NCBI RefSeq assembly: GCF_033153115.1
Contig: NW_026889759.1
Location: forward strand, 10,726,001 to 10,790,000
Origin: Saccostrea echinata
Lineage: Eukaryota
Length of the DNA: 64,000 nt
Reading direction: 5' to 3'
The notes under the pieces were generated by a model, which was given only the letters and a program-made list of their open reading frames with translations, ran no database searches and was not told the origin of the DNA. Shown piece by piece: positions 46,401 through 49,400 of the stretch (position 1 is the stretch's first letter; each line of letters starts with the position of its first letter). The translations under genes and the position numbers were made by a program.

Positions 46401-49400
46401 CATAGGGTGGGGCCATAATAGGTGATCAATGTTTTACAAGGAAATATGAAGGGAAAAAACCTTTGAAAATCTCAAGTACCATTGGTTCAGAAAAGATGAA
46501 AACGTATGTGAAAGTTTCCTGATATAATGTAGATTCTAAATTGTTCAAATCATGGGCCTCAGGGGTAGGTTAGGGCCACAATAGGGATCAAAATTTTACA
46601 TGGGAATATCTAGAATAAAATCTTCTCAAGAACAGCAGGGCCATGACTAGTGATATTAATATAGACCTTGGGTGGGGCCACAATAGGGGATAACATTTTA
46701 TATGGGAATATACATAGGGAAAAAATCTTTTTATAAAGTCTTCCTAAGAACCACAATAAAATCATTCTTTTGCAATCATTTCAACCTTGTGTCGATTCAC
46801 TTTTTTTTTCAATTATTGGTTAAAATAAGGCTAAAATTTGGGATCAAATTTTTTAAAATGGATGAAAAACAAAATAAGGCCATGTTCATCATATTATTGC
46901 ATCCTCATGTTGTGTGGATTCAGAGACTCCTTAGAGTGAGGTGGCCCACAATATGGGGTAACAATTTTTCATGGGAATAAAGTGTGGGAAAATCTGGAGT
47001 ACAACAAGGCTAAGGATACTCTGGTGAGCATTGTGGCCTTTGGGCCTTGTGTTTAATTTTAACACACTTCCAGTTTTACTAGTGGAAACTGCAGATTTAC
47101 TTTAAAAAGCCTTTTTGTTCAAATTAAGGGGGTCAAAAATGTGAAAAGTTTACAGACGTACATGTACAGAGGAACCAACAAAATGAGGTGCTCTTAAAAC
47201 TGTTTCCTTGCTACAATATTATTGAATATTTCTTCCCCATCTTTCATTAATCAGGCATAAAAAAATGTTCACTGCATTACATAAACAAGGGCATTGAGTG
47301 ATTAACATCTTGTAATGTACCTTGATAAATCCCATGGCACACAACTTTCTTTCTTCTGTAGTTCTCGCTTCGTTTCTGTCATATTATATTTCAGGTACAT
47401 CTGCATGTAGGCAGGAATTTGATCTTTGTTTAGTTTCATTATCCAAGTAGTGTGAAGGTGCATGGGTCCTTGCCTAAAATGAAACATATTTAATTCATGC
47501 TTATGATACTGTATCCAACTGTATTTTTGCTGCAGTTTTATTTTTGCTGCTCTCAACTTGGGATAGAACTGTAAAACAACCACTAAAAATAATTTTTAAG
47601 TAAAAAAAAAAATAATTAAAATGAAAGACATCAAAAAAAAAAAAAAAAATCAAAAAGAACTGAAAACATATTATAATAATGAATGAAGTCAAAGCACTTT
47701 GAAATATCAGTTGATTTTGTTCATCATTTAAAGTGGAGCAGTCTGCAAACAATCGAAATTTTATCAATGTGGATCTCAGGCTGAGAAGATGAGTAACAAA
47801 GCATTACTCAATTCAGTCTCAGACTTGTATCACTATCATATAATAATATTACACCTGAGTTGCCATTTTTCTTTGATTATCATGGTGGGATACGTCATGG
47901 TGGTATAATTTACTTACTTGCTGTGCATGAATTTGGTTTCCTGGTCTGTGAGATTGGAATACAGGAAATCTTTCAGTGGTATAGTGTTGTTCATCCATTC
48001 TATAAGACCAACTCTGAAATAAAATGTTGAAAAACTATAATATACATGTACATATTCAAAGAAAATAATTACTGGAAAATTTGCTTCCATACTTGACTAA
48101 AGATTATCTCCTACTCATGTCAACCTCTGTATGTGAGAAATGTGGACAACATTAATCTCTTTGTTGTCTCTTCCATCAGATAACATATATGGTAGAAAGA
48201 TGGGGAAATAGCCAATGGATCTAAAATGTTTTAATGTCTGATCTGCATAGTAAATCTTCTGAACTGAGTATGTTAGTGAGTCTTGTGACTTTCATTCTTT
48301 TGACCAGAAAAACTAGCAATCATTCACCCATCAAGGTGAATTTGCATATGAAGTTTGATGACTATCAAGCAAAGTATTCTTAAGATATTGATTAGATGAC
48401 AGTGATATTGAAACTTCCTGACCTTTGACTTGAAAATCAATAAGGGTTATCTGCATATTATTTTCAACCTGTGTTTAAAGTTTGAAAATTATCAATTAAA
48501 TGACATGTTAGGTACTGCTTGAACAACATTTATTGCAAATGCAGCAAAAAATAAAATTAGAACATAGATGACCTTTCAACCACAAAATCATAAAGGTCAT
48601 CTGACACAGGCAATCAGTGTATGAGGATTGACAAAGGATTTTCAATGTATTGGTTCAACAGCATTGACCTACTGACTTCCCAGCATGTGTAGCATTACGT
48701 GTTACATAGGCTCCATTTTTTTTGAAAAGAGGGAGGAAGGGCATAAAATTTGCATTTTTTGACTTCCTCTGTTTACAAGCTAGATCACTCTAAGATCTGG
48801 TTCTATATTTAAACTGATTAGTTTCACTTTTAGGTTCTTCTGTCCTTCATCAGAGCCCAGTTCTATACTTAAGACTAGTAATCTTGGTGTCATGGGAATG
48901 ACTTGTTAAGTTTTGATTTTTTAGATTCCTCTGTTCACAGGCCAGGTAATTTACAAGACCTTGTATTTAGACTCACCTTGGTGTCATGAGTATAACTTGA
49001 AAAGTGTTTATTTTTATATTCATCTCTTTATGGGCCACACTACTCATGTGGTACTTTATTTTGACTGACGTTGGTGTCATTGGAATGACTTGGTAGGGTT
49101 TGATTTTAACGTTCCACTGTTTACAGGCTGGGTCACTCTCAAGGACCTGGATATAAAGTTTAGACTAACCTTGGTGTCATTGGAATGACTTGGTAGGTTT
49201 TGATTTTAAGGTTCCTCTGTTTACAGGCTGGGTCACTCTCCAAGACCTGGTTCATCAGGAAGAAGAGTTGTTCTATCCTCTGATCCTGCCTTAAATCCTC
49301 TCCTCCCTTCACAAGGTAATGGTACTCCCTCTCATCATTTCCACGAATCGTTATCCTCTTTGGTTTACGTATTGAGGTCATAACTTTTACCTAGCAAGGA

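Follow-up and report, generated by a model that had tools for sequence, protein, structure and literature searches.

In the oyster Saccostrea echinata an exon of the kinase domain of DNA-PKcs is followed, in its downstream intron, by several imperfect copies of its own end. What are these copies doing there? The original prediction held that the nearest copy could be spliced in place of the exon and would then give an in-frame, kinase-dead DNA-PKcs, the alternatives being that the copies act as decoy donors or are neutral relics. The window, that is the whole stretch of DNA analysed, comprises 64,000 nucleotides (contig NW_026889759.1, positions 10,726,001 to 10,790,000). Positions given below are those of the window, and the gene lies on its minus strand.

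The DNA-PKcs gene

The stretch belongs to the genome's one DNA-PKcs gene (G000, contig C10). One match was found in the oyster's own genome, with one DNA-PKcs kinase locus among the PF00454 matches, and a paralogous or dispersed origin of the array was rejected on these counts. The gene model was obtained by aligning the DNA-PKcs protein of Magallana gigas (P0163) to the window and to 120 kb beside it. The spliced model has 95 exons, 94 GT-AG introns (the shortest being 80 nt) and 4116 residues with no internal stops. It shares 3587 of 4116 residues with M. gigas DNA-PKcs and 590 of 603 with a fragment from Saccostrea cucullata, and human DNA-PKcs is its top match among solved structures. Judged by its sequence the gene is a full-length PIKK with a DNA-PKcs kinase sequence.

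Exon 88 corresponds to residues 3726–3797 of human DNA-PKcs (E-value=2.5e-26). The lysine of LVKGGEDLR, its 28th residue, had been named as the ATP-binding lysine of the PIKKs; it aligns to human K3753 and is a lysine in 120 of 120 homologues. Changing K3753 to arginine abolishes kinase activity (PMC6821318).

Other parts of the window contain 143 consecutive N (12389–12531), two arrays of a satellite-like unit of ~166 nt (37604–38808 and 52556–53467) and a GC-richer region of imperfect 135-, 123-, 60- and 42-nt repeats with long open frames on the minus strand (20273–20996), which may be part of a gene on the plus strand, as a coding exon of repetitive sequence. The minus-strand open frames at 213–12310 resemble an ALG6-type glucosyltransferase and a DCC1-type protein, both identities being putative.

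Structure of the array

The array after exon 88 consists of five decayed tandem units of a ~95-nt repeat (Table 1), arranged head to tail over 49150–48749, unit 0 being the one that spans the exon 88 donor. Tandem Repeats Finder reported a period of 100 nt at 49059–49250 with 91% likeness.

Table 1. Exons, repeat units and sibling arrays of the DNA-PKcs gene (window positions unless stated)
Feature	Position	Strand	Description
Exon 87 (upstream)	49575..49642	minus	spliced to 49390 in RNA contigs
Exon 88 of 95	49390-49170	minus	221 nt, phase 0 to 2; kinase N-lobe; donor AAG|GTTAGT used in RNA
Exon 89 (downstream)	47918..48013	minus	96 nt; spliced to 49170 in RNA contigs
Unit 0	49151..49250	minus	last 81 nt of exon and first 19 nt of intron (100-nt period)
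Unit 1	49055..49150	minus	84/92 identical; contains 77-nt pseudo-exon 49146-49070
Unit 2	48962..49054	minus	59/76 identical; pseudo-donor AAG|GTGAGT after 48977
Unit 3	48864..48961	minus	79/94 identical, with indels; donor GT lost (AAG|ATTACT)
Unit 4	48804..48863	minus	remnant, 18/22 identical; score 28, within chance
Unit 5	48749..48803	minus	truncated, 43/50 identical; without donor
170-nt pseudo-exon, units 1+2	48977..49146	minus	open, phase 0 to 2; best cryptic candidate; no joint in RNA contigs
Sibling array	62356..62597	minus	unit of 54 nt that includes the donor after 62558, present in three copies; GT pseudo-donors (10.3 bits) in two of them
Sibling array	60588..60824	minus	exon end at 60763, two decayed copies
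Sibling array	65532-65236 (extended window numbering, L002)		decayed exon-end copies; pseudo-donor of 8.5 bits exceeds real donor of 6.4 bits
Sibling array	G000:C10 ~10796690-10797190 (L002; 71160-70690 in extended window numbering)		~12 copies of a 38-nt donor-spanning unit

Local alignment of the exon end plus donor with the units gave, in order of distance, scores of 152, 75, 111, 28 and 56, the null maxima being 36 (300 shuffles) and 31 (other stretches of the window). About five copies of exon end and donor had been noted. Five units are indeed present, four of them far above the null maximum, but the fourth is a remnant at chance level and only two (units 1 and 2) keep the GT; it has been lost from unit 3, and units 4 and 5 stop short of the donor position. 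Identity to the exon unit is 91, 78 and 84% for the first three units and 86% for the last, unit 4 being the remnant. The nearest unit is thus the most similar one, as proposed, but the stack is not graded: unit 3 is more like the exon than unit 2, and decay with distance was rejected.

The repeat unit has its start within the exon, at CAG|GTC, and extends ~19 nt beyond the exon-intron border. Because of this start, the acceptor of copy 1 is the exon's Gln codon, which the duplication has set after 23 nt of copied T-rich intron start, and the phase match of the copy follows from a unit that begins at a codon border and ends at the donor. The 77-nt copy at 49070–49146 therefore has the acceptor, the donor GTCAGT and the phase 0-to-2 attributed to it, but the acceptor is "its own" only as a duplicated exonic codon.

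Splice signals and pseudo-exons

Splice sites were scored with matrices derived from the 94 introns of the gene itself. The real exon 88 donor reaches 9.3 bits (79th percentile among the donors of the gene), the copy-1 donor AAC|GTCAGT 2.9 bits (4th percentile of 94) and the copy-2 donor AAG|GTGAGT 9.5 bits (83rd percentile); copy 2 had been described as open with a consensus donor, and so it is, at 48977. The copy-1 acceptor reaches 6.6 bits (37th percentile) and outscores the real acceptor of exon 88 (4.9 bits, 21st percentile), which counts against a neutral reading. Sites as good as those of copy 1 number 63 acceptors and 462 donors in the 40,303 intron bases of the gene. At the copy-1 thresholds 10 open, in-phase candidates were obtained in five introns, three of them in the intron downstream of exon 88.

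The 170-nt form that joins units 1 and 2 is the sole candidate across the 94 introns at its own score thresholds, and an open in-phase pseudo-exon occurs in one of 23 arrays, that of exon 88. That this pseudo-exon is unique, open and well scored at its splice sites is what tells most against a purely neutral interpretation. A gap of 23 nt separates it from the real donor and the gene has no intron shorter than 80 nt, so that this form and the real exon cannot both be spliced in, as had been argued for the near copy. Read-through past the real donor yields R-L-V-stop, with TAA after three codons. Within the real exon a branch-like motif, TGAC, begins 33 nt ahead of the copy-1 acceptor, and the internal CAG|GT at 49247 scores 5.6 bits as a donor (17th percentile).

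Coding constraint on the copies

Relative to the exon, copy 1 has a single silent codon change and the replacements R>W, L>V, T>P and, at its end, R>T, the last of which also weakens its donor. R>W, L>V and T>P were each found in none of 118 homologues, the T being kept in 116 of them, and copy 2 carries P>L at a proline present in 113 of 113. Nine of the 14 differences of copy 2 fall on third positions (P=0.01 if the copy alone drifts neutrally; P=0.15 once the exon drifts equally at silent sites). In 23 pooled arrays, frame-breaking units included, the corresponding count is 93 of 170 differences (75 of 135 without the focal array), and against this the 9/14 of copy 2 is ordinary (P=0.33). 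Purifying selection on copy 2, which the first P value had suggested, was accordingly rejected. The synonymous bias that had been proposed as a sign of function did not emerge, the third-position share of copy 2 matching that of the pooled arrays and copy 1 having its one silent change; nor did these comparisons (118 homologues, 23 pooled arrays) reveal coding constraint on the copies as an alternative exon. An exon variant at 49243 in runs X1 and X8 has the same base as copy 1, which would fit silent drift in the exon since the duplication.

RNA evidence

The RNA was studied as assembled contigs, which drop rare forms, from four of 10 listed runs (three studies, depth 13–56). None of the 10 is catalogued as RNA or contains half of the sequence words sought; the presence of spliced joints indicates that the four runs derive from RNA. 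In all four the joints 49575>49390 and 49170>48013 were found, spanning the whole array and bridging the real exon. A joint at any copy, including the predicted 49575>49146 and 49070>48013 and any use of 48977, was absent from the contigs of all four runs, which are shallow and in which rare forms drop out. A major alternative form in the RNA is unlikely. Cover over 48652–49148 is zero in the RNA contigs, which by itself was not counted as evidence. The array is also uncovered as DNA in every run, so that those animals may lack it, and this weighs against the neutral reading. At several positions within exons two of the four runs depart from the window sequence; they could stem from other alleles or a sister species.

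Relatives

Sixty-three of the 81 proteins examined are genomic-contig read-throughs of exon 88 into the intron in other oysters. None of the 41 read-through tails (27–56 residues) resembles any frame of the exon end, their best score being 21 as against 90–119 for the window's own intron. Judged from these translations, the array is absent from the start of the exon 88 intron (the first 27–56 codons) in those other oyster lineages. The suggested comparison with related oysters thus found the array in none of the 41 peptides over that span. A metagenome scan gave 19 loci, the best 79% identical and none from an oyster-level relative; the four of these that were inspected have no copy after the exon.

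Frequency of exon-end arrays

Of the 94 DNA-PKcs introns, five open with copies of the exon end that precedes them and none closes with copies of the exon start that follows (at a threshold of >27, the null maximum being 29 among 8556 pairs). The units of the five arrays are ~38, 90, 54, 80 and 95 nt long. Since 78 of 500 intronic 60-mers in this gene have a downstream copy, arrays included, tandem repeats are common in its introns anyway. In the array at 62558 the first pseudo-donor lies 54 nt downstream and in frame, and its use would add 18 residues.

An independent sample was taken from 17 dynein heavy-chain genes, with 842 paralogue-supported exon ends per side. Exons were predicted with a small gene finder trained on the DNA-PKcs gene (39 of 45 and 29 of 33 predictions exact in cross-validation) and kept only if they had a paralogue match; L152 and two apparent duplicate loci on C132 and C81 were left out. 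Dynein loci with the same exon pattern form the pairs G000:C10:5.30 Mb with C132 and C33:20.56 Mb with C81, which suggests duplicated haplotigs in the assembly. Sequence similar to the ~166-nt satellite was mis-predicted as exons in two dynein loci. A perfect 55-nt exon-end copy, which is not tandem, lies ~500 nt after a predicted dynein exon in L117-L123 (G000:C25:12977001-13047000), with a good-looking acceptor before it and GA, not GT, after it.

The raw dynein matches were 20 on the donor side and 11 on the acceptor side, with one match in 7868 shuffled pairs. After two of the 20 and four of the 11 had been dropped by eye as satellite mis-predicted as exons, 18 donor-side and 7 acceptor-side matches per 842 remained (P=0.04), and strictly junction-spanning matches numbered 15 and 6 (P=0.08). 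Adding DNA-PKcs gives 20 against 6 and P=0.009, an optimistic value, since arrays tend to share a gene and DNA-PKcs entered the count on account of its array. Arrays occur in seven of the 17 dynein genes, the other 10 being without any, and two genes hold six and five of the 18 donor-side arrays (L131-L137, G000:C12:5286001-5356000; L089-L095, G000:C29:26378001-26448000). Because of this clustering the donor-side bias is a lead and not a result; if real, it would fit a rule in which the first donor wins and such duplications are harmless. In twelve of the 23 donor-side arrays the real donor is roughly equalled in strength by a pseudo-donor. These counts supply a denominator for the oyster genome, with arrays at ~2% of dynein exon ends and in 5/94 DNA-PKcs introns.

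Origin and significance of the array

The array is best explained as a decayed tandem repeat which probably arose by local duplication and is likely neutral, the assembled RNA using the genuine first donor alone; we place the probability of this reading at about 0.86. Slippage or unequal crossing-over would have made the units and turned them over. The array would be tolerated because the upstream-most donor wins, as it does in human F7 even against stronger downstream copies, and the acceptor of copy 1 would be a by-product, barred from use while the real donor, 23 nt before it, is occupied. Of the readings first entertained, the neutral relic fares best, in view of the tandem geometry, the weak copy-1 donor, the damaging changes, the normal joints in all four runs, the recurrence of such arrays in this gene and in the dyneins (18 of 842 donor sides) and the absence of copies from the 41 read-through peptides. 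The 77-nt copy as a mutually exclusive exon found no support, its donor lying at the 4th percentile, its changes being seen in 0/118 homologues and its joints being absent. What had been said of the consequence is sound: a copy replacing the exon would delete 48 codons, the K3753 equivalent among them, in frame.

It is improbable that the array provides a genuine mutually exclusive exon, for which the 170-nt form would be a better candidate than the 77-nt one, and which would replace exon 88 in a minority of transcripts and give an in-frame, kinase-dead DNA-PKcs lacking 48 kinase residues. That form has an open frame, matching phases, an acceptor at the 37th and a donor at the 83rd percentile, next to a weak real acceptor (21st), and has no equal among the 23 arrays; the 23-nt gap fits steric exclusion, described for gaps of <50 nt (PMC5740500), and the branch-like TGAC motif lies in the real exon, its start 33 nt from the acceptor. 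Against this, the joint is absent in the contigs of all four runs, damaging changes fall on conserved residues, the 41 read-through peptides of other oysters are without the array at this position, the starting point of the unit by itself accounts for acceptor and phase, and the length is unlike that of the exon, in contrast to validated mutually exclusive exons (PMC5740500). Human kinase-dead PRKDC isoforms exist, the short one losing ~30 residues (PMC1949830), so that a kinase-dead product would be biologically sensible. A minisatellite recruited in this way as a steric mutually exclusive exon, the 170-nt form replacing the ATP-site exon in some tissue or stress state, is an equally doubtful proposition; were it true, it would be an independent route to an inhibitory isoform of the human type and a "mirage" caught in creating a new exon. 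Use of the 170-nt form would show how such repeats seed new exons.

Low-rate use of the pseudo-donors, chiefly AAG|GTGAGT at 48977, with the normal acceptor would extend the exon across the TAA and lead to mRNA decay, array length then tuning the level of DNA-PKcs. The copy-2 donor at 9.5 bits against 9.3 for the real one, the R-L-V-stop read-through, the scarcity in contigs to be expected of decayed products and the use of proximal pseudo-donors in human 6-16 and CBS (PMC1557585) speak for such tuning, but it is distinctly improbable: the contigs neither contain a joint from 48977 or 49070 nor cover the array, three of the five units have no donor, and the upstream site of F7 meets no competition from stronger pseudo-sites (PMC1557585). 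Still less credible is an intron gain under way, in which the CAG|GT at 49247 would serve as donor and the AG of copy 1 as acceptor, removing a 100-nt intron and leaving a full-length kinase with its last 25 residues from copy 1. Such a step would need the weak copy-1 donor and would place W, V and P at conserved sites, and no 100-nt joint occurs in the RNA contigs of the four runs, even though an AG|GT proto-splice site marks the start of the unit, the donor inside the exon attains 5.6 bits (17th percentile), an intron of 100 nt would be longer than the shortest one in the gene (80 nt) and this route has been proposed for "mirages" (PMC3087553) and for Drosophila (PMC2891723). That the copies are an assembly artefact is hardly conceivable; the array is known from one assembly, but its units differ from the exon and from one another by 9–30% plus indels, which misassembly does not produce, and arrays of the same kind recur in 7/17 dynein genes.

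On the preferred reading, that of a neutral decayed repeat, the single locus matters little, its class having been described already in lancelet and human genes. It is of modest use as a natural test substrate, in which an equally strong second donor and a competing acceptor stand beside an essential exon.

Comparison with known systems

The array belongs to the known class of junction-spanning minisatellites, that of the amphioxus "mirages" and of human F7 and LMNB2. Four of the five features of the class were found here: a first unit that spans the boundary, head-to-tail copies, a repeated splice site and, in the contigs, use of the upstream-most donor. The fifth is a copy number that differs between alleles; the array gave one match in the oyster's own genome, and none of the listed runs contains the intron as DNA. 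Among the matches listed, judged by title or the start of the abstract, none reports such arrays in an oyster or other bivalve.

Other comparisons concern alternative exons. Use of a copy would resemble the human short PRKDC isoform in that part of the kinase domain is lost in frame, and activity with it. The human isoform, that of Convery et al. 2005, reportedly arises by skipping of the next exon, equivalent to 48013–47918, and without duplicated sequence. With the mutually exclusive exon clusters in which steric exclusion acts at gaps of <50 nt (PMC5740500), the array shares a neighbouring homologous sequence in the same frame less than 50 nt from the upstream donor, both the 77-nt and the 170-nt forms being open in phase 0 to 2. 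The copy differs from such exons in covering the last third of the exon only, with neither protein-level constraint nor a junction in the shallow contigs of the four runs; at 77 or 170 nt against 221 nt the forms are not of similar length, and the first 48 codons are without counterpart.

The closest invertebrate case is that of the amphioxus "mirages" (Adh3 and the globins BflGb6 and BflGb9), which are minisatellite-like tandem duplications spanning an exon-intron boundary on either side of the exon (PMC3087553). Their units are 81–100% alike, many but not all keep the splice signals, and regular splicing is reported there to be unaffected (PMC3087553). Boundary-spanning tandem units are common to both; the oyster unit, of ~95 nt, is more decayed and is known here from one assembly.

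In humans, junction-spanning minisatellites are recorded in F7 IVS7 (37 bp), LMNB2 (100 bp x 10–15), PDGF intron 4 (81 bp), CBS intron 13 and 6-16 (PMC1557585). Experiments on F7 showed that the upstream-most donor is chosen and that stronger downstream pseudo-sites do not compete, and in LMNB2 only the authentic donor is used; in 6-16 and CBS proximal pseudo-donors are used, which counts against the neutral reading of the oyster array (PMC1557585). The human repeats and the oyster array have in common a first monomer that spans the donor, pseudo-donors downstream and use of the upstream-most donor, and the LMNB2 unit has the same length as oyster unit 0 (100). In F7 the pseudo-sites match the real site exactly, but in the array after exon 88 three of five have been lost; the gene's closest match to F7 is its 38-nt array, most copies of which keep a CAG|GTAATG identical to the real site. 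Unlike the human minisatellites, the unit of the exon 88 array also makes a passable acceptor and with it an in-phase pseudo-exon.
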